Positions 983 through 51,319 of a stretch of 64,000 nt of DNA are shown one piece after another. The stretch's first letter is position 1. Every line of letters starts with the position of its first letter. The notes below the pieces were generated by a model, which saw only the letters and a list, made by a program, of their open reading frames with translations, did no database searches and was not told the origin of the DNA. Source of the DNA: an uncultured Myxococcales bacterium (GTDB lineage Bacteria; Myxococcota_A; Bradymonadia; REDH01); NCBI GenBank assembly GCA_965367675.1, contig CBDUJZ010000009.1, forward strand, positions 2,488 through 66,487. The letters run 5' to 3'. Made by a program: the position numbers and the translations under genes.

Positions 983-2340
983 AACACCGCGGGGGCTTCG
1001 GCGGTCGCGAGGCCGAAGGTGGCGCGCACCTCTTGCTCCTGGTCACGACTGCAGATGACGAGCAGTCGGTCGCCGCCTTGGATGGTGTCTCGACCGGTCG
1101 GAACCCGCACCCCACGCTCGCGGAGGATGGCGCCGATGATGGCAAATCCGGGGAGCGTAAGGTTCATGATTGCGGTGCTTTGGAACGTTTTGTCTAGAGC
1201 AACTTCTAGGACGGAGAAGTCGCCGTGCTCCAGGTCTGCGAGGTGCACGTTGTCCGACTCGACGAACTCGTTCACGACGCGTCGAATGGCTGCGCCCTTG
1301 GCCGACAAGACCACGTCGACGCCGACCTTTTCGAAGATGCGTTCGTTGATCAGTCGGTTGGCCCGCGTGATGACGCGCGGGACGCCGAGGTGCTGCGCGA
1401 GCAGCGAGATGAGGAGGTTCTTTTCGTCGTTGCTGGTGACGGCGACGAGCGCTTGCGGCTCATCGACCAGCTCTTGCTCGAGCAGGTCGAGGTCGGAGCC
1501 GTCGCCGTGGAGCACGAGGCAGTCGAGTTGGGTGGCGATCTCGGTGCATCGGCCGCGGTCGGACTCGATGACTTTGACGTACCAACCGGCGTCGCTCAGG
1601 CCCTCGGCGACGGCGCCGCCGACGAGGCCACCACCGACGATGATCGCGCGGTTGCGCTGCTTGCGGTGGCTCGCGTCCGAGAGGAACCGGTGGAGTCGCC
1701 GGATGCCTTTAGGGGTGCCGATGACGGTCATTCGGTCGCCGGCTTGGAACTGTGTGGAGCCGCGCGGGATAAAGAACTCGTCGCCGCGCTGGCCCATGGC
1801 CGCGAGCACGCCGGTGGGCATTTTCAGGCGGGAGAGCGGCTCGGAGGTGAGCGTCGTGTCGCCTTCGACCTCGAACTTCTCCAAGATGATCTTTCCGCCC
1901 ACGAAAGAGCGCACGTCGAGCGCGCCGGGGACGGTGACGATGCGCACGATTTCTTCGGCGAGCTGCGAGCTTGGGCGCACGATGGCGTCGATCCCGAGCG
2001 ACTCCGCCAGCGCATCCTCGTCGGAGTCGACCTCGAAGAAGCCGCGCCGGTTGAGGAAGCAGATGACCTGCGCTGCGCCCATGCGGCGGGCGGCAACACA
2101 CGAGACGATGTTCTTCTCGTCGTCTTCGGAGACGGCGATGAACACACTGGCCTCGGCGGCGCCGGCGGCGTGGAGTACCGTCGGCGACGTGATGGAGCCG
2201 TCGAAAATCTCGATCTCAAGGCGCTCTAGCCGGGCGTAGTGCCGGTTGTGCGGCCCGATGAAGGCCACATGGTGCGACGCCATAAGACGCTCAGCGATAC
2301 GGAGGCCGACTTCACTGCCGCCTGCGACCACGATGTTCAT
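979..2340 (-). CDS. trkA: Trk-system K+ uptake NAD-binding protein TrkA (two RCK_N/RCK_C repeats)
   Basis: ORF 979..2844 trimmed to internal ATG (MNIVVAGGSEVGLRIAERL...). Two Rossmann GxGxxG motifs (VVAGGSEVG, IIVGGGLVGGAVAEGL) plus TrkA_C domains. Sits immediately upstream of trkH. Confidence 0.9.
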   Translation of the reverse strand: MNIVVAGGSEVGLRIAERLMASHHVAFIGPHNRHYARLERLEIEIFDGSITSPTVLHAAGAAEASVFIAVSEDDEKNIVSCVAARRMGAAQVICFLNRRGFFEVDSDEDALAESLGIDAIVRPSSQLAEEIVRIVTVPGALDVRSFVGGKIILEKFEVEGDTTLTSEPLSRLKMPTGVLAAMGQRGDEFFIPRGSTQFQAGDRMTVIGTPKGIRRLHRFLSDASHRKQRNRAIIVGGGLVGGAVAEGLSDAGWYVKVIESDRGRCTEIATQLDCLVLHGDGSDLDLLEQELVDEPQALVAVTSNDEKNLLISLLAQHLGVPRVITRANRLINERIFEKVGVDVVLSAKGAAIRRVVNEFVESDNVHLADLEHGDFSVLEVALDKTFQSTAIMNLTLPGFAIIGAILRERGVRVPTGRDTIQGGDRLLVICSRDQEQEVRATFGLATAEAPAVL

Positions 2341-2450
2341 AGTTGTCTTCCTGAGACAGGTTGCCGGAGCGCTTAGCACACGCGCGCGCCTCTGCAACAT
2401 GTTCAATTCCGGCGGTCGCCAGGTGGGCGCATTCCCTGTACCCTCGCGGA

Positions 2451-5400
2451 ATGAAAGCCAGCGTTCGGAACCCCTTCGCGTCTGCGGCCCGTCTTGGGCG
2501 GCAGCTCTGTACCCCATTTGGCGCACGGTTCGGCCGGTCGTGTAAAGGCCGTCGCGGGGCCGTTCGCGGGTCCCTGGTCGCCGTCGGCGCCGCGTTTCTG
2601 CTAGCGAGCGCGGGGTGTGGCGATGACGCGGACGCCGAGGCGCTTGTGGTCGACTTTGACACGCTGCCGGCCGCCGCGCATGAGGCCCGCCCGTGGGTGC
2701 GTTGGTGGTGGCCAGGCGGCGCCGTGGACGACGCGCAGCTCGCGCAGGAGTTGGCCTGGATGGGCGAAGCGGGCTTCGGCGGGGTAGAGGTCCAGGCCTT
2801 CGACGCCGCGCTTGATCCCACAAACGGCCCCGAGTGGGACGCACGCCAGCGTGATGTGCGCTCGGCCGCGTTCATCGGCCACGTGCGCGCGGCCCTCGAC
2901 GCCGCGGCGCAACACGATATGCGCGTGGATCTCACCGTCGGCAGCGGCTGGCCCGTGGGCGGGGCGCACGTGCCGCATGAAGACGCACTCACCACGCTCA
3001 TGTGGTGGGAGTCGACTGTGCAGGGCCCCATCGAGTTGGACGTGGTGCCCGAGCCGAGCGCCAGCGTGTTCTTCGAGGTCGCGGAGCTGGCGGAGAGCGC
3101 GTTCGGGGAGCGCCTCGCGCGGTTCCTGCCGGAGCTCGCCCAGCCGGTCGCGGCGTACGCGGCGCGCGTCGAGTCAGGGTCACGATCCCGAAACTGGCTC
3201 GACCTGGACGACACCGTGGTCTTGAACCCGGCGTCGATCCGCGACCTGACCAGCAGTTGGGTGGACGGCCGGCTTCAGGCCTCGCTTCCAGCGGGGAAGT
3301 GGCACGTGGTCGCGGTGTTTTCAGGGCCCGACGGTGAGTACATCACGCTGACCTCCGAGCCTGGAAACCCGTACCCGGTGGACCACCTGAACGGCGACGC
3401 GGTCGCACGCTCTGTCACGGCACTCTTGGGGGACATCGGCGCGCATGCGGCCTGGTCGGGGCTGTTTGTGGATAGCTTAGAGTTTAAAGTTGACCGACTG
3501 TTTACCGGTGATTTCCTCGAACGGTTCGAGGAACTTCGGGGCTATGCCCTCGACCATCAGGTGTTGGCGGTTTTGGCGCAGAGCGCGGACAGTTTCTTGC
3601 TGGACGCCGGGCGGGTAGCGGTCGCCCCTGAGCTGCAGCTCGGCCCCGACGATGACCGCGTGCGCTGGGACTATCGGGAGACCGTGTCGGACCTGTTCGT
3701 CGAGCGCTTCGCTGGAACGCTCGCGTCGTGGAGCGCGGATCGGGGCATGACGCTTCGCGCGCAAAACTACGGCATCGACATCGACGTCATTCGCGCTGCC
3801 GGCGCTGCGCACATTCCGGAGACGGAGACGCTCTACGCTGGCGGAGCGAGCGTGTTCTACAAAGTCGCGGCGGCGGGAGCGCATTTGTACGGCCGGCAGC
3901 TCGTTGGGGCGGAGGCGTTTTCCTTCATCCAGCGCGACCACATGACCACGCCGCAGAAGGTGCGCGCGGCGGCGGATAAGCTGTTCGCGGCGGGCGTCAA
4001 TCACCTGGTGCTACACGGCGTTCCGTACCCGGCAGAGGGGGCGTACGGGGTGACCGGTTGGACACCGTTCTCCAGCCCGTTCGGCGGGGCGTCGACGTTT
4101 GGCTCTACGTTCGGCGAGCGTTGGGAGTTCTTCGACAGCCTGCCTGCCCTGACGGGGTACATGGCGCGGTCCCAGGCCTTGCTGCGTATGGGGACCCCGC
4201 GCGCCGACGTGCTGATCTACTACCCGTTCCATGGCTTCCCGACGTCGCTCGCGCTGGCCGAGTCGTTCCGGGAACCGCTGCTGGGCGGGCACATGGAGGG
4301 CGTGGAGGTGGAGAGCCGAGAAGTGCCGTTCGCGTCGATCGCGTCGTTGCTCGGGCCCCCGGTGGAGGACCCGCGGGTGACGTGGCTCGTGGCGCTTCAG
4401 GCGGAGATCAGCGGGCTAGAGGACGCTGGGCTCACGTGGGATTGGATCAACGCCGAGCGTTTGGCTGTCGCCACGGTGGCGGACGGGGAGATTCGAGTCG
4501 CTGACGCGGCTTATGACGCGTTGCTGCTGTTCGACGTCGCCGAGATGCCTGCGCGCGCGGCCGAGGCCGTTGCGGGCCTCTCAGAGGCGGGTGCGCGGGT
4601 CGTACTGCGGGAGGTTGACGTGCAGCAGAGCCCGTCGTTCGCCGAGCTCGGGCGCGCCGGGGAGATTCAGGCGTGGATGGCGCGTGCGCGCGCCGCGGGA
4701 GCGCAGGACGTGACGACCGTGGCGGACGAGCACCTCCCTCGGCACGTGCGTCTGACCGGGAGCGCGGGGCGGGTGCTCACGCGTACGCTGCCCCACGGAA
4801 CGCTCCACTTTGTGCACAACCCCTCGGCGACCTCCGCGACGGTGGTGGTGCAAGCGCAGCGGTGTGAGGAAGCGGTGCTGTATGACGCGTGGGCCGATGA
4901 GCGTTGGCAGCCGATCGCGGCCGAAGGCGGCGGTTGGCAACTCTCACTCCCGGCTTGGAGCGCTCGATTTTTGATCTGCGGTCAGTCCGACTCGGACGTG
5001 CTCGCGGAGATTCAATCGAGCGAGACGGGGGGCGTGGAGGTGAGCGGGTGGACGCTCGAAGCGACGTCCGCGACGGGGCTGTTCGATGCGGTCTCTTTCG
5101 CTCCAGGGCACTTGATGGATTGGCGGGAAGTTCCTGAGTTGATGGGGCTTTCTGGTGTTGCTGTGTTCGCGGGGGCGTTCGCGTGGACCGGAGAGTCAGC
5201 GGCGGAGTTGGTGCTCGAAGACGTCTACGGAACGGTCGATGTGACGGTGAACGGCACGTATGTGGGCCGGCTCGACGTGGCCCCTTGGCGCATGCCGCTG
5301 CGCGCCCCTGATGGAGGTGAAGTGCTGCGCGCGGGCGAGAACACGGTGGTGCTTCGCCACGTGCCGCCGCTACGCAACGAGCTGGTCGCTGCGGCTGCAG

Positions 5401-5492
5401 CAGGCGCGGTGGAGTACGCGCAGTTCAACGGCAAGGAGGACTCGCTGGTGGCGAGCGGCGTGGTCGGGCCGGTTCGCGTGGTCGGGCGCTAG
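2451..5492 (+). CDS. Secreted lipoprotein glycoside hydrolase, GH106-like (putative alpha-L-rhamnosidase family); family assignment tentative
   Basis: 1043-aa ORF, start chosen at MKASVRN... (alternatives: ATG at 2361 or a downstream GTG). Lipobox LLASAGC. N-terminal PWVRWWWPGGAVDDAQLAQELAWMGEAGFGGVEV resembles the conserved FWFWN...GxGG start of GH106-type hydrolases. Confidence 0.7.
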   Translation: MKASVRNPFASAARLGRQLCTPFGARFGRSCKGRRGAVRGSLVAVGAAFLLASAGCGDDADAEALVVDFDTLPAAAHEARPWVRWWWPGGAVDDAQLAQELAWMGEAGFGGVEVQAFDAALDPTNGPEWDARQRDVRSAAFIGHVRAALDAAAQHDMRVDLTVGSGWPVGGAHVPHEDALTTLMWWESTVQGPIELDVVPEPSASVFFEVAELAESAFGERLARFLPELAQPVAAYAARVESGSRSRNWLDLDDTVVLNPASIRDLTSSWVDGRLQASLPAGKWHVVAVFSGPDGEYITLTSEPGNPYPVDHLNGDAVARSVTALLGDIGAHAAWSGLFVDSLEFKVDRLFTGDFLERFEELRGYALDHQVLAVLAQSADSFLLDAGRVAVAPELQLGPDDDRVRWDYRETVSDLFVERFAGTLASWSADRGMTLRAQNYGIDIDVIRAAGAAHIPETETLYAGGASVFYKVAAAGAHLYGRQLVGAEAFSFIQRDHMTTPQKVRAAADKLFAAGVNHLVLHGVPYPAEGAYGVTGWTPFSSPFGGASTFGSTFGERWEFFDSLPALTGYMARSQALLRMGTPRADVLIYYPFHGFPTSLALAESFREPLLGGHMEGVEVESREVPFASIASLLGPPVEDPRVTWLVALQAEISGLEDAGLTWDWINAERLAVATVADGEIRVADAAYDALLLFDVAEMPARAAEAVAGLSEAGARVVLREVDVQQSPSFAELGRAGEIQAWMARARAAGAQDVTTVADEHLPRHVRLTGSAGRVLTRTLPHGTLHFVHNPSATSATVVVQAQRCEEAVLYDAWADERWQPIAAEGGGWQLSLPAWSARFLICGQSDSDVLAEIQSSETGGVEVSGWTLEATSATGLFDAVSFAPGHLMDWREVPELMGLSGVAVFAGAFAWTGESAAELVLEDVYGTVDVTVNGTYVGRLDVAPWRMPLRAPDGGEVLRAGENTVVLRHVPPLRNELVAAAAAGAVEYAQFNGKEDSLVASGVVGPVRVVGR

Positions 5493-5576
5493 CCCCGAGC
5501 AATTGGACGCGTTTGACATGCGATCTACCGGTGGTTCCGTCCGGATCGCGTGGTTCACCTCAAATGGGTTAGCTCT

Positions 5577-6098
5577 CTAGAGCCCGCCGCCTGAACCGTC
5601 ACTTTCGCCCGAGCCGTCAGCGACATCGGTGTCGTCGTCGGCGTCGGCGTCCTCCGATGCGTCGGCGTCACCAGACCCGTCAGCGACATCGGTGTCACCG
5701 GAGCCATCTGCCACGTCGGCGTCACCTGACCCGTCGGCGGCGGCATCCTCGAGCGTGTCTTCCACCACGTCTTCGGCGGTGTCTTCGGGCGTGTCGCTGA
5801 GCGTGTCTTCGGGCGCGTCGACCGCGGCGTCAGCAACGGTGTCTTCCGGGGCGTCGGCGGGCGCGTCCGCTTCAGTGGTGTCGGTCTCGGCAGCGTCGTC
5901 CGGTGCGTCTGCGGCGGTGTCGACGGTCGCGTCGCCCTCGGCATCGAGCGGCGGGAACGCGCCGTCTTGGATCACGCAGATGTTGCCGGAGCCGGGCTCA
6001 GAACCGTCGGGGCAGTACTCCTGCGATTCGAACAGCGCGCAGCCGGAGGCGGCGAAAACGAAGAGCGTGGCGAACGCCATCTGCGAAAAGCGGGACAT
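5577..6098 (-). CDS. Acidic-repeat lipoprotein (D/E/T/A-rich; DVADGSGD x3)
   Basis: Signal peptide and lipobox (FAASGC), a short Cys-containing segment, then a low-complexity acidic tail with tandem DVADGSGD repeats. GC3-rich codon usage. Divergent from the cupredoxin lipoprotein. Confidence 0.6.
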   Translation of the reverse strand: MSRFSQMAFATLFVFAASGCALFESQEYCPDGSEPGSGNICVIQDGAFPPLDAEGDATVDTAADAPDDAAETDTTEADAPADAPEDTVADAAVDAPEDTLSDTPEDTAEDVVEDTLEDAAADGSGDADVADGSGDTDVADGSGDADASEDADADDDTDVADGSGESDGSGGGL

Positions 6099-6464
6099 GG
6101 GCTACTCGGTAGGAGGGACTCCGCGATCGTAGCAACACGTGGAATTCGTGTCACGCCCTAGGTCGCGCCGGGCACAATACGCCGACGTCAGCGCGGCTGG
6201 GACGGAGCGCGCATGGTACCGGCTCGGGGGAGGGGGCCCGGGCGGGCGACGGCCGAGGCACAAATCCCGTGTTGTATTTGAATCGCGGGTTACGCTAGAC
6301 GGCCTTCATTCCCCGAGTTCGACGGAGATTGTCGCTTCGTACGTGCGTGAGTTCGCTCGCGTCGTGCCCGCGTACCGTCAGACCTTTGTCGTTTGAACCG
6401 CACTTCGAGCGGTGTTTGTGGCCGATCTCGTCCGCATTCGCCACTCCTGTACCCAAGAGCCGCC

Positions 6465-7205
6465 ATGAAGACCCTCCCCCTGTTCCGCCACTCGCTTCTC
6501 ATCGCCTTGGCGAGCTCCAGCCTGACCCTCGCCGCCTGTGGTGACGACGAGTCCCCCACGCCGGACGCTGGAGAGACCGACACCAGCGCGGACACCAGCG
6601 AGGGCGACGCGGCGGAGACGGATACGGTCGAAGCGGACGTCGCTGATGATGCGACGGTGACCGACACGGTCGAGGCCGACGTCGCCGCGGACACCGTTGA
6701 AACCGATGTGGTCGAGGCTGACGTTGCCGCGGACACCACCGAGACCGACACCGTCGAGGGCGATGTGGCCGAGGACACGACGGAGACCGATACCGTCGAG
6801 GCCGACATCACGGAAGACACGGTCGAGGACACGGTCGAGGACACCACGGAAGACACCGTCGAGTCGCGTCTCGAGGTCAACGGCTGCACCTACGAGACCG
6901 CCAGCGACATGACCGGCCAATCCACGGTCGACATCTCCGGCATTCAGGCGTGGACGATTCCGCACCAGGTCTGCATCGTCGTATCGGCGGGCACCGAAGT
7001 TTCCTGGTCCGGTAGCTTTGGCGGTCACCCGCTGGTGGGTGGCGAGGTGTTCTCCGTCGACGACGCGAGCCCCATCACCATCGCCGCGAATGCCGCTGGC
7101 TCCGAGGCGGCCACCGTGTCCGTCATGCTCGCGAACGCCGGTGACTTTGCATACTTCTGCAACCGTCACTTCGAGGCCATGCAAGGCGTCATCTACGTCG
7201 ACTAG
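6465..7205 (+). CDS. Cupredoxin (type-1 blue copper, plastocyanin/pseudoazurin-like) lipoprotein with acidic TDTVEADVA repeat linker
   Basis: Start at MKTLPLFRHSLLIALASSSLTLAAC (lipobox). About 100 aa of roughly 11-aa acidic repeats, then a C-terminal domain with His (TIPHQVC) and the YFCNRHFEAMQG copper-site signature (Cys-x2-His-x3-Met). Confidence 0.8.
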   Translation: MKTLPLFRHSLLIALASSSLTLAACGDDESPTPDAGETDTSADTSEGDAAETDTVEADVADDATVTDTVEADVAADTVETDVVEADVAADTTETDTVEGDVAEDTTETDTVEADITEDTVEDTVEDTTEDTVESRLEVNGCTYETASDMTGQSTVDISGIQAWTIPHQVCIVVSAGTEVSWSGSFGGHPLVGGEVFSVDDASPITIAANAAGSEAATVSVMLANAGDFAYFCNRHFEAMQGVIYVD

Positions 7206-7290: not shown

Positions 7291-8777
7291 CTACACGTCT
7301 GTGTCCGACGTGGGTTTCCGCTTGAGCCAGAGCCGGAAGCACGTGCCCGAGCGATCGGCGAGATTCACGTGCTCCAGCTCGCCGCCCATCGCTCGCGCGA
7401 CCTTTTTGGACACCGCGAGTCCCAAGCCGGTGCCCTTGATCTTGGTGGTGAAGAACGGCTCGAACATGCGCCTGCGGACGTCTTCCGGTAGGCCTGGGCC
7501 CGTATCGTAGACCTCGATGTACTCGGTGTTTGCGACGATCCGGAGCTCTCCCTCGCCCTGCATCGCTTGGCACGCGTTGATGGCGAGATTGACCAGCACT
7601 TGGCGCACCATCTCAGGATCGATGGCCATGTGCGGGTTTCCACGCACGCGCATGATCACGTTGGGGTAATCGATGCTCAGGCCGTCGAGGACTTCGCGGC
7701 ACAGCTCGGCGACGTCGATACCGCTCTCGCTGCGGAACTGGTTGGGGCGCGCGTACGCGAGCAGGTCGGTGACCAAGTTGTTGAGGCCGCGCACCTGCTT
7801 GAGCACGCGGTCGATGATGTTATGCAGCCGGTCTCCGCTGGTGAACTCGTTCTGGATGACCTGCAGCGCGCCGCTGATTCCAGCGAGCGGGTTGCGAAGC
7901 TCATGCGCCAGCGTGGCGGTCAGCGTGCCGATCTGCGCCAGGTGTTCGGCTTGCTGCGCGCGCCGTTCGGCTTCGACCGCTGCGGTGTGGTCTTGCACGT
8001 ACGCGATGAGGCCGGCCTCGGGCGCTTCGAGCGGTACCAGCGTGATCGAGACGTGCGCTGGCCGCCCGCCGATCGTGATGTCGACGCGCCGAATGCGCAG
8101 GCTCTCGCGGTCTTGAAGCGCCCGTTGGATGTGGTCCTCAAAGTCGGCGTCTTGGAACAGGCTCGGCGGGAGCACGTCCCGGTAGTGTGCCCCCACGGAG
8201 GAGCGGTGCCCAAACAGCCAGGCGGCCGCCGACGTGGACGAGATCACGTTGCCGTGTTCGTCGAGCAAGATGGCGGCGGCGGGCAGGTGGGCGATGAGCA
8301 GCATACGCGCATCACGGACCCGCTTTTGCGCCTCCACCGAGTGGTACGTGCTCGTCATGAGCCCGAGGTCGAGCATGGTGACCTTGCGGATCGCGTTCAC
8401 GGTGCTCGTCGGGTCCTCCGTCGCCGCGATCGCGATCTGAATCAGATCCTCCTGCATTGCCGACATCGCGAAGAACATGGCCGCGTGCGACACGCCGACG
8501 CGCACGTGGACATGGCCGATCCGCTGCCGTGCGTGGGTGTAGTCATCGTCCCACGGGCCGTTGAGCATGCTCTGGATCCAGCGCTTGAGCGTCTGCTTGA
8601 GTCGCTCCACCTGGACCGGGTCAGAGATGATCTCGCGGGTCGTCGGGTGCGCGAGCACCTTCTCGTAGAAGTGCTCGACCACCGGACCGAGTTCTGGCTC
8701 CACAAACGGCCACAGGCGCTGCAGCAGCGCTTTGTCTTCGGAGCTGAAATCTCCGTAGGAGCAGAACTCGTCGATGT

Positions 8778-8781
<4 letters not shown>
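7291..8781 (-). CDS. Globin-coupled sensor histidine kinase (sensor globin + PAS + HisKA + HATPase_c)
   Basis: N-terminal protoglobin/sensor-globin fold (LWPFVEPELGPVVEHFYEKVLAHPTTREII...ARQRIGHVHVRVGV), a PAS-like middle segment, an H-box (LAHELRNPLAGI) and N/G boxes (DTGPGLPED...GTGLGLAV). ATGA overlap with the upstream response regulator. Confidence 0.9.
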
Positions 8782-10139
<1,358 letters not shown>

Positions 10140-10284
10140 ATTGGGGGGTGTGCCGTACTAAACAGCGGGTGTGTGATTTCGCACGTGTCGGGGCCAAAGG
10201 CCAGACGGTGTGCGGGGGATGCCGCCCGGATGGGCGTTCTCACACGCTTAAAGAGCAAAGTGCGTGCCAGCCTTGGGGTAGGCG

Positions 10285-14831: not shown

Positions 14832-15027
14832 GGGCGTCCTCGGCAGGTGCGGGGACGATCGCGTCGTCCAGTGGAAGGAGTGCGGCCTCTCGGTAGATGG
14901 CCGCGGCGCCCGGGCGGAACATCCGCAGGAACACGAGCGCGAAGAAGCAGAAGAACCCGACGGTGACGGCGCCCATCAGCAAACCGCCGGACGCCATATC
15001 ACCGGCCTGTCGAAAGATAGGATTCAT
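14824..15027 (-). CDS. ccoQ: cbb3 oxidase subunit IV CcoQ-like small membrane protein
   Basis: 67 aa with a single transmembrane helix, sitting between ccoO and ccoP and overlapping both; position and size are typical of ccoQ. Confidence 0.6.
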   Translation of the reverse strand: MNPIFRQAGDMASGGLLMGAVTVGFFCFFALVFLRMFRPGAAAIYREAALLPLDDAIVPAPAEDARG

Positions 15028-15811
15028 GGCTGGACTCCTTCGGGGTTGGCGGCGCCCTCGGGGGCACCGGAGCCTTCAACGTCCGCTGCGGCGTCAGCCT
15101 CGGCGGAGCCTTCAGCGTTGTCCTCAATGCCGAGCAGGGCGTTGATATCGGTGCCCAGTCGCTGCAGGTAAGCGATGAGCGCGATGGCCTCGAGGTTGGG
15201 GTCGGCCTCAATGTTGGCCGCGGCCAAGCTCTCGACGATGACCTGCGCTTCGGCGCTCAACGTGGCGCCCGCGTTGGCGATATCTTCTTCGGTGTAGGGC
15301 TCACCCACGCGGCTGAGGGCGCGGATGGTGCTCTGCACGTCTTCGACGTCCCAGGTGTCTTCGTACAGCCAGCTGTAGGCGGGCATGATGGACCCGGGCG
15401 AGGTCGTGCGCGGGTTGCGCATGTGCTCCCAGTGCCATGCGTCGGGGTACTTGCCGCCCACGCGCGCCAGGTCGGGACCGATGCGACGGCTGCCGAGCTG
15501 GAACGGGCGGTCGTGCACCACCTCGGCCGCTCGGGACCACTCGCCGTAGCGCATGGTCTCGGCGCGCATGGGGCGAATCATCTGCGAGTGGCAGTTGTAG
15601 CACCCTTCGCGGACGTAGATGTCACGTCCGGCGAGCTCCAGCGGGGTGTAGGGGGCCACGAGGTGGGCATCCTCCGCTTGGTTCGCGTCGACGGTGTACA
15701 TCGGGATGATTTCGACCAAGCCACCGATGAGGATCGCGACGACGGCGAGGAAGGTGAAGGGCGCCGCTTGGGTCTCGAGGACTCTAGAGTGCCAGCTGTC
15801 TTGGTTGCTGC

Positions 15812-15815
<4 letters not shown>
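15024..15815 (-). CDS. ccoO: cbb3 oxidase subunit II CcoO (monohaem cytochrome c)
   Basis: N-terminal transmembrane helix, CYNCHSQMIRP haem site and the conserved FixO region. Acidic C-terminal extension. Confidence 0.9.
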
Positions 15816-17284
<1,469 letters not shown>

Positions 17285-17445
17285 GGGTCGTGTGTGCGGG
17301 GGCGGGGGAGCGCCGCGGAGGGCAAGAAGTGCCCAAGAGTCTGCAACGCTCATGCCAGCCAGGATCCGAGCGAGCGCGGTCAAACACCGACACACCGTGA
17401 ACGCGCGCCGCTCGTGGGAGTGCGCGAGCCTCGATGCCCCCCACG

Positions 17446-17470: not shown

Positions 17471-18301
17471 GTGGCAATTCGCCCAGCCATGTGTGTGATC
17501 CTGCACACTTGCTTCGCCCTCTGCGTCGGGAAACGCCCGAGTTCGCTGGGTGTGAGATTTGGCACAACGCCTGCATTAAGTCGCCGCGTGACCACTTCAG
17601 CACTCATCGCGCTCCTATTCGCTTCCCTGGCCGTCGGCTTCGTCGGTAGCCTGCATTGCGTTGGCATGTGCGGCCCGTTTGCGGCCTTGGCAGGCACGCG
17701 CGGCTGGAAGGGCGTGATCACATATTCTTCTGGACGGCTGCTGACTTACGGGCTGCTCGGTGCATTTGCCGGACTGTTCGGCGCAGCGCTCGCGGCGCTC
17801 CGTGAGGTCGGACTCGTGGTCGCTGTGGTCATCTTGCTCACCGTATCTCTACAGCTCGCAGGTGTGTTGCCTGAGCCGCGCATCGGCGCTCGTTGGTCTG
17901 CACCCCTCGTTCGCTGGGTGCAACGCGCCCGGGCGGGCCGTTTCGCACTAGGCGTCACCACCGCGCTCCTGCCGTGCGGTCTCGTATACGCCGGCCTCGG
18001 TGTGGCCATCGGCGCTGGCTCCCCGCTGTGGGGCGCGCTCGCGATGGTCACGTTCGGTCTGGGCACTTGGCCCGCGTCCCTGCTCGTCGGCGTTGGCGCC
18101 GGTCGCTTGATGCGGGTGCGTAAACCGGTCCAGCGAGTCGCCGCCGCCATCGTGTGTGTCGCCGGACTGTGGACGCTCAGCCACCGCGCGCCGTCCCATC
18201 TCGTCGAGCCGCCCTCGGAGCCTGGAGCGTCCGAGGCAGCACCGCTTGACCAGGCCCCCATTCCTTCCTGCTGCGCCGGCAACGTCTCAGCCCCGCAGTG
18301 A
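17471..18301 (+). CDS. DsbD_2 / TauE-SafE-like polytopic membrane protein with HCxxMCGP motif (start uncertain; GTG near 17590 possible)
   Basis: Six or more transmembrane helices. LHCVGMCGPF motif in TM1 and a second conserved Cys (LLPCGLVY). Confidence 0.7.
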   Translation: MAIRPAMCVILHTCFALCVGKRPSSLGVRFGTTPALSRRVTTSALIALLFASLAVGFVGSLHCVGMCGPFAALAGTRGWKGVITYSSGRLLTYGLLGAFAGLFGAALAALREVGLVVAVVILLTVSLQLAGVLPEPRIGARWSAPLVRWVQRARAGRFALGVTTALLPCGLVYAGLGVAIGAGSPLWGALAMVTFGLGTWPASLLVGVGAGRLMRVRKPVQRVAAAIVCVAGLWTLSHRAPSHLVEPPSEPGASEAAPLDQAPIPSCCAGNVSAPQ

Positions 18302-18710: not shown

Positions 18711-19640
18711 CTACTCGGCTGCATCCGGCTCGCTCGGCTCTGCGGCCGTATCTGCATGAGCCTCCGGTTTCGGAATCCGTCCGAAGCCCGAGAGCTCCTG
18801 TTTCACCCACCCGTCAGGGTAGTCGTGTAGGCCTTCGAACCCGAGGGCGATGTCACGACCGTCGGACGGCCACCAGGCGGTCTTGAACAGCCAGTCCCAC
18901 AGGCTCAGGCTGATGCCGAAGTTGCATCCGTAGCGGCCGGGCTGCGTGTACGCGTGGTGCCAGATGTGCATCTGTGGCGTGTTGAAGATGTAGCGCAGGG
19001 GCCCGACCGGCAGCCGAACGTTGCTGTGGTTCAGGTGGCCGATGGTCAGCGCGATCGCGTGCACGATGAAGAAGTCGGTGAGGCCGAAGCCGAGCATCGC
19101 CAGGGGGATATACTCGAGCGTCCGGTACACGATCGTCTCCATCCAGTGGTAGCGAAGGTGTGCGGCGAACCCCATCTGCGTCACGCTGTGGTGCACCTTG
19201 TGGAACTGCCACAACCGGTCACTGCGATGGAGCAGCCGGTGCACGTTCCAGTGGATGAAATCGCGCACCACAAACATGACCGCGAGCTTGGCCAAGAGCG
19301 GCCAGCTGCTGATCTCGATGGCGACTAGGTTCTCCCAGCCGAACACGGAGCGTAGCGCGTCGTTGAACGCGACGGAGACGACGCGGGAGAGGGCGGCGTA
19401 GCCGAGCGCGGAGAAGATGAAAAAGTTGAACACCATGTACCAGGCGTCCAACCAGAAGTCCTTCCGCTGCCATGGCTGCTGCTTGCGCCACGGCGCCACT
19501 TGCTCGGCCACGAAACAGGCAACGGACACTGCGAATAGCAGCGTCACGTAGTTGCCCCACCCCGGGTTCAAGAGCTCGTGCTTCAGGTACGCGCCGTACC
19601 CGTAGAAAGCGTCCCGAAAGATGGCGGCGTAGTCGCTCAT
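18711..19640 (-). CDS. Fatty-acid hydroxylase / sterol desaturase family membrane di-iron enzyme
   Basis: Histidine boxes HWNVHRLLH, HKVHH and HIWHH within a polytopic membrane protein. Confidence 0.85.
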   Translation of the reverse strand: MSDYAAIFRDAFYGYGAYLKHELLNPGWGNYVTLLFAVSVACFVAEQVAPWRKQQPWQRKDFWLDAWYMVFNFFIFSALGYAALSRVVSVAFNDALRSVFGWENLVAIEISSWPLLAKLAVMFVVRDFIHWNVHRLLHRSDRLWQFHKVHHSVTQMGFAAHLRYHWMETIVYRTLEYIPLAMLGFGLTDFFIVHAIALTIGHLNHSNVRLPVGPLRYIFNTPQMHIWHHAYTQPGRYGCNFGISLSLWDWLFKTAWWPSDGRDIALGFEGLHDYPDGWVKQELSGFGRIPKPEAHADTAAEPSEPDAAE

Positions 19641-19661: not shown

Positions 19662-21467
19662 CTACTCGCCTTCGGCGCAAACGGTGTCTTGCTCAACAAT
19701 GTGGAACTCCACGCGGCGGTTCTGGGCTCGGCCGCTTCGGCTGTCGTTGTCGGCGATCGGGCGTGTCTCGCCAAATCCTACCGCGTCGACGGATGTACGC
19801 ACGCCCTGGTTCTCCAGGTAGGTGCGGACCGACTCGGCGCGTTCTTGCGACAGCGTCAGGTTGCTGTCGTCGGAGCCGCGGTCATCGGTATGTCCTTCGA
19901 CGCGCACGCGACGAATTTGATTCGCCGAGCGCAGAACTGTCGCCACTTGGTTGAGGAGCTCGAACGAGCGGGCCTCGATTTCAGCGGAGCTGGTCTCGAA
20001 GTACACGTTCTCGGCGATCTCGATGCGGTCGCACTGCAAGGACACGAGTCCCTCGCCTTCTTCGGGGCATCCATCGTCGTCTTCGAAGCCGTCGTAGTCT
20101 TCGGGCAGCTCGGGGCAGGCGTCGTCGGCGTCGAGCATTCCGTCACGGTCGTTGTCCGACTCGGGGCATCCGTCGGCATCTTCGAATCCGTCGAAGTCTT
20201 CGGGGCTGTCCGGGCAGTCGTCGTCAATGTCCAAGACGCCGTCGCCGTCGTTGTCGAGGTCCGGGCATCCGTCCATGTCCTCGAATCCGTCGATGTCCTC
20301 GGCGATGTCGGGGCAGTCGTCGTCCTCGTCGTCGATGCGGTCGCCATCGTTGTCGATGTCGGGGCATCCGTCGGCGTCTTCGAAGCCGTCGTTGTCCTCG
20401 GCCTGCAGCGGGCACGTGTCGTTGAAGTCGAGGATTCCGTCGCCGTCGTTGTCCGGGTCGGGACAGCCGTCGGTGTCTTCGAAGTCGTCGTGGTCCTCGG
20501 CGTCGGCCGGGCACAGGTCGTTGGCGTTGAGCACGCCGTCTTCGTCGCAGTCGTCACATCCGACCGACGAGACGCCGATCTCCAGCATGAAGCGCCAGTC
20601 GGGCGCGCCGAAGCCGCGGAGCAGGCCCATGCCGAAGCCGCCACCCACGTGGACACGGTCGGCGATGTAGCGGCCGCCGATGCGGGCTTCGATGGGGAGC
20701 TCTTCGCGGTCGATGGAGTCCGCAAGCGCAGAGACCGCGCCTTCGAACTCGAGGAGCAGGTGACCGGCCTTCTCCGCGCCCAGCGCGATGTCGATACCGG
20801 CGCCGTACGTGATGACGTCGTCGACCTGCAGGTTCGCGATCTCGCCGCTGCCCGTGCGCACCATGTAGCCCGCGTTGAACATCAGGCGGAACTGCTCCGC
20901 GAACGCCACGTCGAACAGCAGGCGAGGGTGCACGCGGAGGTCTTCGCCCTGCAGCGTGTCCACGTTGCCCAACGGCAGGAACACGCCGACCTCGAGGGCC
21001 AACGAGACGCCGCCGGGGGACTCGCTCGTGTCGCCGTTGAACAACTGCAGCTTGGGGATGATGCGCGGGTCCGCGATGCCGACGCCGGCGTCGTGTCCGT
21101 TGAAGTCCAAGTTGGGTACGTTGTCGCCGGTCTGGCGCAGGATCATCGGGACGTCGAAGCCGATCTCAAGACGGTCCGCGATACCCACCGAGAATAGTAC
21201 GTTGGTGACGAGCTGGTCGTGCACGAGCGCGTTCTTCTGCTCGTCGCCGTCGTAGATGCCGAGCAGGTCGTCCGCGTAGTGGAGCATGAGACCGAGTTCC
21301 CACTGACGGGCGGCTTGGATCTGCGCGGAGCCAACACCGAAACCGTTGAGCCGCTGGCTCGCGTTCGGGTGCAGGTTCTGGACGTCGAAGCCGTCGTACG
21401 CGGCGGCCGGCGAGGCAGAAAGGAGCAGCGCGGCGATGCTGCCGAGGCCAAGTGCGCGAAGTTTCAT
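19662..21467 (-). CDS. OmpA-family outer-membrane protein with thrombospondin type-3 (DxDxDGxxDxxD) calcium-binding repeats
   Basis: Signal peptide (MKLRALGLGSIAALLLSASPAAA), beta-barrel-like N-terminal region, about 10 TSP3 Asp-rich repeats and a C-terminal OmpA_C domain (VEGHTDDRGSDDSNLTLSQERAESV...NRRVEF). Confidence 0.85.
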   Translation of the reverse strand: MKLRALGLGSIAALLLSASPAAAYDGFDVQNLHPNASQRLNGFGVGSAQIQAARQWELGLMLHYADDLLGIYDGDEQKNALVHDQLVTNVLFSVGIADRLEIGFDVPMILRQTGDNVPNLDFNGHDAGVGIADPRIIPKLQLFNGDTSESPGGVSLALEVGVFLPLGNVDTLQGEDLRVHPRLLFDVAFAEQFRLMFNAGYMVRTGSGEIANLQVDDVITYGAGIDIALGAEKAGHLLLEFEGAVSALADSIDREELPIEARIGGRYIADRVHVGGGFGMGLLRGFGAPDWRFMLEIGVSSVGCDDCDEDGVLNANDLCPADAEDHDDFEDTDGCPDPDNDGDGILDFNDTCPLQAEDNDGFEDADGCPDIDNDGDRIDDEDDDCPDIAEDIDGFEDMDGCPDLDNDGDGVLDIDDDCPDSPEDFDGFEDADGCPESDNDRDGMLDADDACPELPEDYDGFEDDDGCPEEGEGLVSLQCDRIEIAENVYFETSSAEIEARSFELLNQVATVLRSANQIRRVRVEGHTDDRGSDDSNLTLSQERAESVRTYLENQGVRTSVDAVGFGETRPIADNDSRSGRAQNRRVEFHIVEQDTVCAEGE

Positions 21468-21732
21468 CGGTAACCCTCTCAAAGACAAATGTGAGATCGT
21501 GTTCGGGACGATTCGCACGCCATGGATAAAAACGCAAAGCATCGCCGTACGCCAAGGGCCTCGGGATACGCGGTGAGGGCGGCGTCTTTAGCCGGAACCC
21601 AATGAACACGCGGCAGTGCTCGAATCAGATTCGGAAATGAAATCGGTCAAGGTTGTTGAATAGAACGTGTTTCAGTACGTATATTCTGTTGCGCAATTGC
21701 ATTACGTAACTGCCTCCGCGTCCACTCAAGTC

Positions 21733-30958: not shown

Positions 30959-33346
30959 CTATTCGGGCGCCTGGTCGGTCATGACGAACGTCAAGGTGCC
31001 GCCAGCTGTGATGTCGTTGTGTTCGATGAAGGGGGTCTCGAGCGGGACGCCGTTGAGCGACACCGATTCGACGTAGACCGCCTCTGGGCTGTTGTTGACG
31101 GCTTCGATGACGAACGTGCCGTCGGACTGGAACTCGGGGTTGAGCACCCACTCGACGCGGTCGAGCAGCGGGCTGCTGAGCGTGTAGCTCGTGCCGCCGG
31201 GCGCGACGGGATAGAAGCCGGCGGCGGCGAGGACGAACCAAGCGGAGGTGGAGCCAGCGTCGTCGTTCCCAGGCAGTCCGCGCCGTCCCAGGCCGTAGGC
31301 TTCGTCCATCACGCGGCGCGTGGTGGCCTGCGTCAGGTCCGGCCGACCGGCGTGTGCGTACAAGAACGGGATGTGGAAGCTCGGCTGGTTCGTCGGGTCG
31401 TACTGGCCGTTGGAGAAGAACGTGTCGAGCTGGGCGATGAACGCCTCCTCGCCTCCGTGAATGTCGATGAGCGCGGGCACGTCGTGGGGCACGAAGAACT
31501 TAAAGATCCAAGCCGAGGCCTCCACGAAGTCGTTGTCGTCGGAGGTGTCTGTGGGGTCGAAGGGCGTCATCCAGCTGCCGTCGCGCAGTCGGCCGCGCGG
31601 GAAGCCGGTCTCTGAGTCCCAGTTTGCCCGCCAGGACTCCGCGCGGGCCATGTAGGTGGCCGCCAGCTCGGTCTCGCCGAGCGTCTCGGCCATCTGCGCC
31701 AGCGCCCAGTCGGCGTACGCGACCTCCATCGTGATGGACGCGTTCTGCGTGGGGTCGCACTCGCGCGGCACGTAACCCAGGCTCATGTACTCCGGCGGAG
31801 TGCCGAGCCCGAAGTACCCGCACGCGCCGTTCGGCGACGAGTTGCTGTCCTCCTCGGAAGTGCGTCGAACGGCCGCGAGCGCGTCGTCCATGTCGAAGCC
31901 ATCGAAGCCCTTAACCACGGCGTCGGCCACGATCGCGACCTGCGGGTTTCCAGTCATAACGCGCGAATAGCCGCCGGCCGCCCAGGGGCACTTGGGCATC
32001 CACCCGCCGGTGCGGTACGCGTGCAGCATCGAGAACACGACGTCGTCGATGATCTCGGGCTCGGCGATGGTCCGGAACGGGTGGCTGGTGCGGTACGTGT
32101 CCCACAGGCACCAGTCATCCGTGTAGTAACGTCGGCCCTCGGGCAGCGGATACTCCGTGGCGACGCCGTCCCACGCGCTCACAAACATGCCGTCTTCGGA
32201 GTAGTCCGCGGGCTGAAACATGGTGTGGTACAGCGCGGTGTAGAAGCGCCGGAGGTCGTCCTCTTCACCCTCCGCTCGCACGCGGTTCAAGCGCGTATTC
32301 CAGGTGGACTCGGCCTCGGCGCGGGCGTCGTCAAAGTCTACCGGCTGCGCGTCGCGGTGCGCGGCGGCGTTGTCGGTGTCGCGCAAGCTCAGGCCCACGC
32401 GAACGGTGAGTACGTCCACGTCGTCGCCAAACTGCATGCCCGCGTGCACGCGCGCGCCGCTGAACGGCATCGCTTCGGGTTCTCGGCTTCCCTGCCACGC
32501 GCCCGTACCGGTGGGCGCGACGCTCGTCGACATTGCCCAATAGACGGTGAGCTCGCCGGTCCCGGGCTGTCCGGCCAACGTGCCGATGAGCGGGTGGACT
32601 TGGTAGTAGCCGAGGCCGCGCCAGTCGGTGTCGGACACCTCGGTGACTTCGCCGCGCAGGGCCGTGCCGCGGCTCTCTTCGAGGTTCAACTCGAGCGCGC
32701 GTGGGGCGTCGCCCTCAAACGTGTAGCGGTGGACGGCACCCCAACGGCTGGCGGTGACCTCGACGCGCGTCTCGTCCGCGGTGATGGCGTAGTAGCCCGG
32801 CGCGGCCTCCTCAGTGGAGCGGTCGAGCGCCGCCGGCGGCTGCGCGGAGATCTCGTCGAGTGCCACGCGGACGGGGCGGACCAGAACATGACCGTAGCCG
32901 TTCCGCAGGCCGCCGGCGCCCTCAAGGTGCATGTGCGCGATGCCAAAGAACTCATCGTCGTCGTGGTGGTACGCGTCGATGTCGCCGGTGCCGCTGTTGG
33001 TGACGGGGCTTGCCCGCACCACGCCGTGGGGGACCAAGGCGCCGGGGATCACATGGCCGAGCCCTTCGGTGCCCACGAACGGGTCCACGTACTGCGTGAG
33101 CGCCATTTCGGGCGGCGGCTCCCACGTCGACACGTCGTCCGTGTCCGGCATCGCGTCGGCGTCCACTGCCGCCGTGTCACCCGCTGCGGTGTCACTCGCC
33201 ACGTCAGCCGTGACGTCGGCGGTCGGCGTGTCCGCGGCATCGCGCGCGTCCGTCTCCGCCTCTGCGCCGTCGCATCCACTGGCGGCGCCGAGAGCGGCGG
33301 TGAGGAGGGCGAATCGAAGAACAGCGCGAGGAGCGGAGGCGGTCAT
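30959..33346 (-). CDS. GH92-family alpha-mannosidase-like lipoprotein
   Basis: 795 aa with a lipobox (LGAASGC) and an acidic linker. Size and conserved blocks (GGWMPKCPWAAGGYSRVMTGNPQVAIVADAVVKG...GNDDAGSTSAWFVL) match the GH92 alpha-1,2-mannosidase family. Confidence 0.8.
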   Translation of the reverse strand: MTASAPRAVLRFALLTAALGAASGCDGAEAETDARDAADTPTADVTADVASDTAAGDTAAVDADAMPDTDDVSTWEPPPEMALTQYVDPFVGTEGLGHVIPGALVPHGVVRASPVTNSGTGDIDAYHHDDDEFFGIAHMHLEGAGGLRNGYGHVLVRPVRVALDEISAQPPAALDRSTEEAAPGYYAITADETRVEVTASRWGAVHRYTFEGDAPRALELNLEESRGTALRGEVTEVSDTDWRGLGYYQVHPLIGTLAGQPGTGELTVYWAMSTSVAPTGTGAWQGSREPEAMPFSGARVHAGMQFGDDVDVLTVRVGLSLRDTDNAAAHRDAQPVDFDDARAEAESTWNTRLNRVRAEGEEDDLRRFYTALYHTMFQPADYSEDGMFVSAWDGVATEYPLPEGRRYYTDDWCLWDTYRTSHPFRTIAEPEIIDDVVFSMLHAYRTGGWMPKCPWAAGGYSRVMTGNPQVAIVADAVVKGFDGFDMDDALAAVRRTSEEDSNSSPNGACGYFGLGTPPEYMSLGYVPRECDPTQNASITMEVAYADWALAQMAETLGETELAATYMARAESWRANWDSETGFPRGRLRDGSWMTPFDPTDTSDDNDFVEASAWIFKFFVPHDVPALIDIHGGEEAFIAQLDTFFSNGQYDPTNQPSFHIPFLYAHAGRPDLTQATTRRVMDEAYGLGRRGLPGNDDAGSTSAWFVLAAAGFYPVAPGGTSYTLSSPLLDRVEWVLNPEFQSDGTFVIEAVNNSPEAVYVESVSLNGVPLETPFIEHNDITAGGTLTFVMTDQAPE

Positions 33347-50176: not shown

Positions 50177-51319
50177 CTACTGCGGAGGCGCGGGAGCGTC
50201 GCCCGGCTCGGGCTCCAGATTCCAGGACTCCTCGTAGTACTCGATGTCGACGGCTTCGGTGATCTCGGTCTCAAGTTCACGGCTCAGGCGCTGTTGGTTC
50301 CGTCGTCGAAGAGGCTCGATGAGCGTCTCGCGGACCTCGTCAATCTCGCGAACGCCCTCCGGGCGGTGCGCCGACACGGAGTAGATTTGCCACCCGAGCG
50401 AGGTGCGGATGGGCTCGCTCACGGTGCCGGGCTCCATCTCGAAGATGACGTCCTCCACGGCGGGCTCGATGCCTCGGGCGGCGTTGCCACGCACGATCCA
50501 GCCACGGTCGCCGCCACGTGTGCGGTCGGTGCTTTCGGAGTCGGTCGATGCCACGGTCGCGAAGTCTTCGCCGCCGTCGGTGACGCGCGCGCGGAGGGCT
50601 TCGATGCGAACGCGCGCCTCTTCGACCTGCTCTTCGGTGGCGTCGGAGCGGAGGCGGATGGTGATCAGGCGTGCGTTCACACGCTCGCCTTCGCGCCAGC
50701 GGTCACGGTTGCTCTCGTAGAACTCGGCGATCTCTTCGGCCGTGGGCTCTAGCGCGCCGCGTTGACTCAGCACGTGGTCCAGCGCGAGCTCGCGTCGGAC
50801 TTCGGCGCGGTACTCGGCGCGGGTGACACCGCGGGAGTTCAGGTAGCGCTCAAAGAGCTGCGGGTTGGCGACCACGTGGCCGAGTTGATCGGACAGGTGT
50901 GCGTCCACCTCGGCGTCCGTGACAACGATTCCGGCTTCGTCCACGTGGCGTTGCAGGACGGCGGCTTGCACGGCGTTGCGCACGAATCGACGTCGGCGCT
51001 CGTTGCGCCACTCGGGGGTGGTAGGTTCGCGGCCGGGGAGCAGCTCGTAGCGTGCGACCATGTCGGCGAGCTGTCCGTCGAGGTCCTCGGTCGTCATGAC
51101 GGGCGTGCAGTCCACGGTGGCGACGACGTTGTCTGCGACGGTGGGGCAGGTGGCGTCGGTGGTCTCGCCGGACCCAGCTTCCACGGCGGGATCGGCGGCT
51201 TCAGCCGAGCCCTCGTTGGCCACAACCGGAAGCGTGGGGGCGTCCACGTCGCTGCCGCATCGACAACCGGCGAGAGATGCCGAGAAAGCGAGAAGTAGAA
51301 GAGGGTGGTTGCGGTTCAT
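50177..51319 (-). CDS. SurA/PrsA-like peptidyl-prolyl cis-trans isomerase lipoprotein (parvulin domain)
   Basis: Lipobox (LAGC), an N-terminal SurA-like chaperone region and a parvulin rotamase domain (GGDRGWIVRGN...GTVSEPIRTSLGWQIY). Confidence 0.8.
   Translation of the reverse strand: MNRNHPLLLLAFSASLAGCRCGSDVDAPTLPVVANEGSAEAADPAVEAGSGETTDATCPTVADNVVATVDCTPVMTTEDLDGQLADMVARYELLPGREPTTPEWRNERRRRFVRNAVQAAVLQRHVDEAGIVVTDAEVDAHLSDQLGHVVANPQLFERYLNSRGVTRAEYRAEVRRELALDHVLSQRGALEPTAEEIAEFYESNRDRWREGERVNARLITIRLRSDATEEQVEEARVRIEALRARVTDGGEDFATVASTDSESTDRTRGGDRGWIVRGNAARGIEPAVEDVIFEMEPGTVSEPIRTSLGWQIYSVSAHRPEGVREIDEVRETLIEPLRRRNQQRLSRELETEITEAVDIEYYEESWNLEPEPGDAPAPPQ

Follow-up and report, generated by a model that had tools for sequence, protein, structure and literature searches.

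The plus-strand gene at 6465..7205 of a 64,000-nucleotide stretch of DNA from an uncultured Myxococcales bacterium (the whole of this stretch is hereafter called the window) encodes a lipoprotein precursor of 246 residues whose C-terminal 114 residues are a type-1 cupredoxin, plastocyanin- and amicyanin-like by fold and by ligands. It stands back to back with a second lipoprotein gene, at 5577..6098 on the minus strand (173 residues), and a spacer of 366 bp (6099..6464) lies between both start codons. The original prediction had described the locus as a divergent pair of lipobox proteins with acidic tandem repeats, 366 bp apart, and the open reading frames (ORFs), coordinates, signal peptides and repeat analysis all agree with that description. 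We consider it likely that these are two separately transcribed lipoprotein genes of a high-GC Gram-negative bacterium, the plus-strand product being a membrane-tethered periplasmic electron carrier with a generic tether, and the spacer an ordinary promoter region. The cupredoxin would be anchored through a lipid-modified Cys25, and its tether of about 107 residues, which is predicted to be intrinsically disordered and strongly anionic, would act as a generic spacer, leaving the domain free to diffuse close to the membrane, and may aid lipoprotein sorting. The 114-residue domain would bind one copper via His188, Cys232, His235 and Met239 and would shuttle single electrons between membrane-associated redox enzymes, its presumptive partners. 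The acidic, repeat-built nature of the tether would reflect the exported-protein idiom of this organism together with slippage-driven length drift, not ion binding, and the minus-strand product would be a species-specific lipoprotein, essentially an anchor with a polyanionic tail.

The copper domain (6861..7202, residues 133-246) carries a complete set of type-1 ligands, as had been foreseen. The putative ligands are His188 (7026..7028), Cys232 (7158..7160), His235 (7167..7169) and Met239 (7179..7181), the last three falling within YFCNRHFEAMQG (residues 230-241) with the spacing Cys232-x2-His235-x3-Met239 in the C-terminal loop. Across 138 full-length domain alignments, His188 and Cys232 are each retained in 135, His235 in 136 and Met239 in 137, so that the incomplete ligand set named in the original prediction as grounds for abandoning the assignment is not what the relatives display. 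The His, Cys and His residues align with the plastocyanin ligands both in a phmmer search of the PDB and in a family-profile comparison. Matches of the single sequence are weak (Pfam Copper-bind at E = 0.019; PDB phmmer to plastocyanin at E = 0.13), while a profile of 63 family members, whose ligands line up with those of the matched proteins, finds solved plastocyanins (E = 1e-5) and amicyanins (about 1e-4); the identity of the domain to these solved proteins is just 15-27%, over a profile E range of 1e-5 to 1e-3.

Structural modelling of the domain, suggested earlier as a check, gave the Greek-key beta-sandwich of a cupredoxin. With an alignment of only three sequences the AlphaFold2 model was poor (predicted local distance difference test, pLDDT, of 57), and it was the 63-sequence alignment that resolved the fold, as an all-beta sandwich with a pLDDT of 97.5 and a predicted template modelling score of 0.90. 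In this model Cys232 closes strand 94-100 and Met239 begins the final strand. All of the top 20 Foldseek hits are blue copper proteins, the best being mavicyanin, amicyanin and plastocyanin. From the fold and the conserved ligands we infer that the domain binds copper and serves as an electron carrier. A copper chaperone of the PCuAC or Sco/SenC type was also considered and rejected: neither has a Pfam or NCBIfam match at E ≤ 1, and the conserved residues are those of the type-1 set.

Several observations weigh against this reading and should be told together. The domain stays below the thresholds of the curated models, scoring 15.8 bits against a cut-off of 21.2 for PF00127 in the Pfam scan, and 22.6 against 93.8 and 15.6 against 87.85 for the NCBIfam models TIGR03102 (halocyanin) and TIGR02656 (plastocyanin). 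We attribute these scores to sequence divergence and not to missing homology, because the family profile reaches plastocyanins at E = 1e-5. In addition to the copper ligands, Cys141 and Cys170 are invariant in all 138 domain alignments, and His167 is almost invariant in the 63-sequence alignment; to judge from conservation, these residues could point to a second site or to another kind of chemistry. A redox partner of the cupredoxin was not found, nor was any other cuproenzyme in the 64-kb window. Finally, the acidic lipoprotein encoded on the minus strand has no homologue among 5.8 billion proteins, whether its whole sequence or its N-terminal 55 residues are used as query, and its putative standing as a functional gene is argued from sequence features, to which we return below.

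The family of the cupredoxin is large and goes undetected at the thresholds of Pfam and NCBIfam. Most of its members are unnamed in their sources, even though the label 'plastocyanin' has already been given to some of them by some pipelines. A word-indexed protein search recovered only two relatives, and exhaustive HMMER was needed to see the extent of the family: a three-sequence profile collected 1126 representatives of clusters defined at 50% identity with E ≤ 1e-3, and 273 with E ≤ 1e-10. The usual order of elements is lipobox, low-complexity tether and cupredoxin, with the lipobox found at the same place in at least 100 of the 153 family proteins analysed (many of the remainder are fragments) and a median of 55 residues between the lipobox Cys and the domain. 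Most tethers are rich in Gly/Ser/Thr, some in Asn or in Pro/Thr, and an acidic content of at least 30% is reached by only 8 of 96. The tether studied here (6540..6860) is one of the acidic ones, with 39% Asp plus Glu (D25, T25, E18, A15, V15; 43 acidic residues) and a sole Arg, which stands at the tether end. Tether sequence thus drifts freely within the family, acidic here and Gly/Ser/Thr-rich in other members, and this drifting composition supports the idea that length and disorder, not sequence, are what count. A dedicated profile would name at least 1126 clusters of lipid-anchored type-1 copper proteins, a gain that lies mainly in annotation; the locus itself brings no new mechanism and no sign of a new regulatory element. 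Other architectures also occur in the family (P0039, P0042, P0067, P0069, P0070 and P0144); in several of these members the cupredoxin domain is N-terminal and is followed by an extension of 160-510 residues, and P0144 has a 411-residue Cys-rich segment (56 Cys) between lipobox and cupredoxin domain.

Set beside known systems, the cupredoxin is an ordinary further case, alongside Laz and auracyanin B, of a blue-copper carrier on a tether. With plastocyanin, amicyanin and halocyanin it shares the beta-sandwich of about 100-110 residues, the upstream His and the C-terminal Cys-x2-His-x3-Met loop that joins the two final strands, but it differs from them in its invariant Cys141/Cys170 and near-invariant His167 and, unlike the soluble plastocyanin-type proteins, it is predicted to be lipid-anchored via a long tether. 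Auracyanin B of Chloroflexus is a membrane-tethered type-1 copper protein (PMC3150298). It too has an N-terminal tether at the membrane and is thought to carry electrons between membrane complexes, and it differs in phylum and in partner (alternative complex III). Laz of Neisseria is a lipid-modified azurin, and thus a lipoprotein cupredoxin (PMC6277709). Our protein shares its build, in which a lipoprotein signal peptide and a low-complexity repeat linker precede an electron-carrying cupredoxin of the envelope, and Neisseria, like the organism studied here, respires via a cbb3 oxidase. The Laz linker is an AAEAP-type H.8 region of about 39 residues, rich in Ala and Pro, in contrast to the D/E/T-rich tether of about 107 residues described here. 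We rejected membership of the azurin subfamily (Laz-type) for our protein, azurins matching only at E 0.02-0.5; the architecture is analogous.

Both precursors begin with a short basic n-region, followed by an uncharged h-region and a lipobox Cys within the range expected of lipoprotein signal peptides (residues 15-35). In the cupredoxin precursor, which starts MKTLPLFRHSLLIALASSSLTLAAC, the signal peptide (6465..6539, plus strand) reads MKTLPLFRHSLLIALASSSLTLAA up to the lipobox LAAC with Cys25, and Gly occupies the +2 position after the Cys; in the acidic lipoprotein, which starts MSRFSQMAFATLFVFAASGC, it reads MSRFSQMAFATLFVFAASG up to the lipobox Cys20, with Ala at +2. We infer from these signals that both proteins are lipid-modified and reside at a membrane. 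The plus-strand ORF is open from 6393, and it is the ATG at 6465 that yields a canonical precursor; the same start was chosen in the gene call of a near-identical strain, and an identical cupredoxin precursor is annotated on three public contigs.

The reading frames agree with the codon-position composition of the neighbouring genes, both annotated frames having an overall GC content of 0.79-0.85 at third codon positions (GC3; 0.85 for the cupredoxin gene) and of about 0.5 at second positions (GC2). The repeat DNA had been expected to yield spurious S/T-rich ORFs on both strands, and three such S/T- or P/R-rich ORFs were indeed located in other frames, at 5629..6132 on the plus strand and at 5555..5944 and 6290..6889 on the minus strand. 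The GC2 of these competing frames is 0.74-0.75, which is the wrong codon-position pattern. Tandem Repeats Finder reported four arrays inside the two genes. In the cupredoxin gene, a 42-nt unit occurs 5.1 times (6606..6821), encoding the 14-residue TDTVEADVAADTxE, and a 12-nt unit encoding DTVE occurs 2.4 times (6816..6844). The TDTVEADVAAD-like unit noticed in the original prediction is the core of this 14-residue unit; the period, given there as 11 residues, is in truth 14. In the acidic lipoprotein gene, a 27-nt unit is present in 2.7 copies (5660..5732), corresponding to the DVADGSG[DE]x motif, whose threefold repetition had been correctly noted, and a 12-nt unit in 4.2 copies (5769..5819).

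Over 17.2 kb, 27 substitutions and two indels separate the window from a second assembly (L005, ENA ERZ25043464), an identity of 99.76%. Both indels are in-frame, and both fall inside the repeats of the two lipoprotein genes: one of 3 bp (5735..5737), which removes one Ala from the acidic lipoprotein, and one of 12 bp (6816..6827), which deletes one DTVE unit from the cupredoxin of L005. Repeat number therefore varies among strains, which had been proposed as something to look for, and the variation indicates that tether length is tolerant of change and supports translation of both frames. Five of the 27 substitutions crowd into 40 bp (6863..6902) at the junction of tether and cupredoxin, where ESR becomes DAR and two further changes are synonymous. 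A short tract of recombination or of slippage repair beside the repeat array may explain this cluster.

The role of the acidic repeats deserves closer discussion, as they had been suggested either to bind Ca2+ or other metal ions or to act as flexible stalks. N-terminal disordered linkers are common in lipoproteins, and their length and disorder, not their sequence, are what counts in Lol sorting (El Rayes et al., bioRxiv 10.1101/2021.01.05.425367). The present tethers would likewise form an unstructured segment right after the acylated Cys, and the compositional freedom of the family fits this linker rule; they differ from the linkers of El Rayes et al. in being far longer (about 107-130 residues), repeat-built and extremely acidic. 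The stalk idea also fits the lipobox-tether-cupredoxin architecture seen family-wide. Three other lipoproteins of the window, namely a GH92 glycosidase (30959..33346, minus strand; mature start C followed by DGAEAETDARDAADTPTADVTADVASDTAAGDTAAVDADAMPDTDD), a SurA-like peptidyl-prolyl isomerase (50177..51319, minus strand) and a GH106 glycosidase (2361..5492, plus strand), open with D/A/T-rich stretches after the lipobox Cys. More generally, among 33 ORFs of the window the exported and envelope proteins are acid-shifted and nearly Lys-free, with isoelectric points (pI) of 4.0-4.9, whereas cytoplasmic enzymes are ordinary in Lys; examples are CcoO (pI 4.43, Lys 0.4%), an OmpA-family protein at 19662..21542 (pI 4.05, 22% Asp plus Glu), the GH92 protein (pI 4.31) and the SurA-like isomerase (pI 4.63). 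An acid shift of exported proteins would fit a marine or saline habitat. Because other lipoproteins of the window share such tethers and exported proteins are acidic as a rule, we regard the acidic tether as an organism-wide idiom and not as a matter of copper chemistry. The repeats themselves most plausibly make up a flexible spacer that tolerates changes of length, and not a dedicated metal-binding module, given that their composition is unconserved, that they follow the idiom of the organism and that strains carry indels within them.

The alternative, in which the poly-acidic repeats are metal-binding modules (for Ca2+, Cu2+ or other cations) and both proteins form a cation-storage or copper-delivery pair, would account for their extreme charge, with 51 acidic and no basic residues in the mature acidic lipoprotein and the 43 acidic residues of the cupredoxin tether, and it could draw on the nine-residue period of DVADGSG[DE]x, which is like that of RTX repeats, on a resemblance between the two tethers slightly beyond what their composition predicts (a score reached by 1 of 500 residue shuffles), and on the nearby Cu-ATPase gene ccoI. 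We nevertheless hold it to be quite improbable. Relatives of the cupredoxin do not conserve the acidic composition, similar tethers occur on glycosidases and on an isomerase of the same window, exported proteins of this organism are acidic in general, and near-identical strains differ in repeat number. In addition, His, Cys and Met, the residues on which copper sites usually depend, are missing from the tethers, Pfam returned no HemolysinCabind, EF-hand or other Ca-binding family at E ≤ 1, and DVADGSG[DE]x misfits GGxGxDxUx and counts only three copies. The more specific candidate of an RTX or beta-roll Ca-binding protein was rejected for the 173-residue protein, which has no Pfam family at E ≤ 1 and a nine-residue unit off the consensus.

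The acidic lipoprotein is the more enigmatic of the two products. In its mature form it counts 154 residues, 37 of them Asp, 14 Glu and none basic (Lys, Arg or His), for a net charge of about -51. Past the lipid Cys comes a short segment with Cys29 and Cys41, and then about 120 residues of D/A/G/E/T low complexity to the C-terminus. One could suspect that the ORF 5577..6098 is non-functional, being either a chance ORF over GC-rich repeats or a decayed lipoprotein gene that has lost its globular domain, for its product has neither a homologue in the protein search nor a match in Pfam or NCBIfam, two thirds of it are of low complexity, no globular domain is present, and ORFs of like length occur in other frames of the same DNA. 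This we judge to be decidedly unlikely, and the acidic lipoprotein is most likely a real gene, as its features indicate: the first start codon coincides exactly with the beginning of a canonical lipoprotein signal peptide; the non-repeat N-terminal part is gene-like (GC3 0.87, GC2 0.51), whereas the alternative frames show an inverted pattern; the indel of 3 bp that distinguishes the strains keeps the frame; upstream, a sigma-70-like site lies where a promoter of this gene would be expected; and independent pipelines called it as a gene on public contigs. As for what it does, we offer as a low-confidence guess that it may be a polyanionic brush or a divalent-cation buffer at the membrane surface.

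The tether-coding regions of the two genes (5748..5901 and 6564..6863) show collinear inverted similarity, of 71-76% over 38-62 nt and 91% over 22 nt. While the similarity of the two tethers is matched by only 1 of 500 residue shuffles at the protein level, it is marginal at the DNA level, where 12 of 300 codon shuffles reach the score. A shared origin through inverted duplication is possible on this pattern.

The 366-bp spacer had been thought long for a compact genome and a potential site of regulatory elements or of a small RNA. A crude GC3-based gene call puts divergent gaps elsewhere in the window at anything from -40 to over 600 bp and the coding share at about 82%, so the spacer is unremarkable for two promoters; we presume that it is an ordinary divergent promoter region holding two promoters and 5' untranslated regions. 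The statement that it shows no clear promoter or terminator motifs holds in part. No terminator-like site was found in it, but a consensus scan of the 2-kb region returned one sigma-70-like candidate promoter, against 0.2 expected in shuffles. This site (6126..6154, minus strand) reads GTGACA-17-TACGAT, is TG-extended and is a consensus match only; it lies about 28 nt upstream of the minus-strand ATG. The same scan gave no sigma-70-like promoter close to the cupredoxin start. Sigma-54 sites with up to two mismatches are absent from the spacer, and a site with three mismatches (6198..6213) was rejected, the background being 0.39 such sites per 366 bp. Also rejected was a hidden small ORF (6139..6396 and others), as no frame has coding-type GC3 (≤ 0.69).

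That the spacer instead encodes a small RNA or a cis-regulatory RNA, for example a leader of the cupredoxin mRNA, appears very improbable indeed. The missing sigma-70-like promoter near the cupredoxin start would leave room for a long 5' untranslated region, and the spacer is 100% identical between both strains; this identity is, however, uninformative where the strains are 99.8% identical genome-wide, and in the locus search with the three-sequence alignment the closest non-strain locus recovered was only 51% identical, with no orthologous loci of intermediate divergence. Moreover, the spacer has no Rfam match at E ≤ 1, on both strands its minimum free energy falls within what dinucleotide shuffles give (z = -0.41 and -0.59), it contains one weak inverted repeat and otherwise no notable repeats, and neither an internal terminator-like site nor an unusual length sets it apart.

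On the far side, the cupredoxin gene is convergent with a minus-strand gene for a protoglobin-PAS histidine kinase (7291..8781), which overlaps by 4 nt the gene for an NtrC-type sigma-54 activator (8778..10139, minus strand), according to Pfam and the L005 gene calls. Beyond the NtrC-type gene follow ccoS, ccoI, ccoG, ccoP, ccoQ, ccoO (15024..15815) and ccoN (15812..17395), all on the minus strand, so the kinase/NtrC pair forms the downstream end of a ccoNOQP-ccoGHIS cluster. A perfect sigma-54 consensus, TGGCACGCACTTTGCT, occurs at 10254..10269 on the minus strand, about 115 nt upstream of the activator gene, and sites with one mismatch occur at the 5' end of the ccoN ORF (17342..17357, minus strand) and near a divergent DsbD_2 gene (17560..17575, plus strand). 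This arrangement of genes and predicted sites suggests that the cbb3 oxidase may be controlled by a globin-coupled O2 sensor, NtrC and sigma-54.

Could the cupredoxin then serve as a dedicated, tethered electron donor to the neighbouring cbb3 oxidase, or form part of that module, with the tether holding it near the oxidase? The original prediction had suggested that acidic stalks could place the copper domain there. A gap of 85 bp separates the end of the cupredoxin gene from the 3' end of the kinase/NtrC pair that follows ccoNOQP-ccoGHIS, the same arrangement of cupredoxin and cco genes is found in the second strain, and the window offers no other cuproenzyme or obvious partner. However, the cupredoxin gene runs convergently to the regulator genes and so is not co-transcribed with them; it is a neighbour of the cbb3 cluster and not a member of its operon. 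The perfect sigma-54 promoter precedes the regulator gene, while none above chance lies upstream of the cupredoxin gene. Neither cco genes nor an acidic lipoprotein neighbour turned up at any of about 20 additional relative-encoding loci drawn from genomes and metagenomes; their contexts vary (an ArsR-type regulator with a methyltransferase, FGE-sulfatase, DUF1554, gyrase), and their sources include one Myxococcales metagenome-assembled genome (MAG) and one 'Proteobacteria' MAG of about 70% GC. Moreover, cbb3 oxidases receive their electrons from c-type cytochromes via CcoO and CcoP, and CcoO is itself acidic (pI 4.43), so that electrostatic steering would be lacking. A link to the cbb3 oxidase is possible on the basis of adjacency in one species, but a dedicated role of the cupredoxin as its donor seems to us unlikely.

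Highly unlikely, in our view, is the joint reading in which the large lipobox-tether-cupredoxin family would represent a new, so far unrecognised class of membrane-tethered electron shuttles, here feeding the cbb3 oxidase under an oxygen-sensing globin-kinase/NtrC/sigma-54 circuit, in which the polyanionic tether and the orphan lipoprotein would form a copper or calcium reservoir at the membrane surface, and in which the Cys pair and His167 might make up a second site. The reading preferred here remains that of a generic tethered carrier beside an ordinary promoter region.

A minor observation concerns the surroundings of one relative. At locus L007, the gene for the cupredoxin relative P0016 is adjoined by a gene of the fatty-acid hydroxylase family (1118..1930, minus strand), and a homologue of this hydroxylase with 32% identity is encoded in the window at 18711..19640 on the minus strand, beside the cco cluster, which may be a coincidence.

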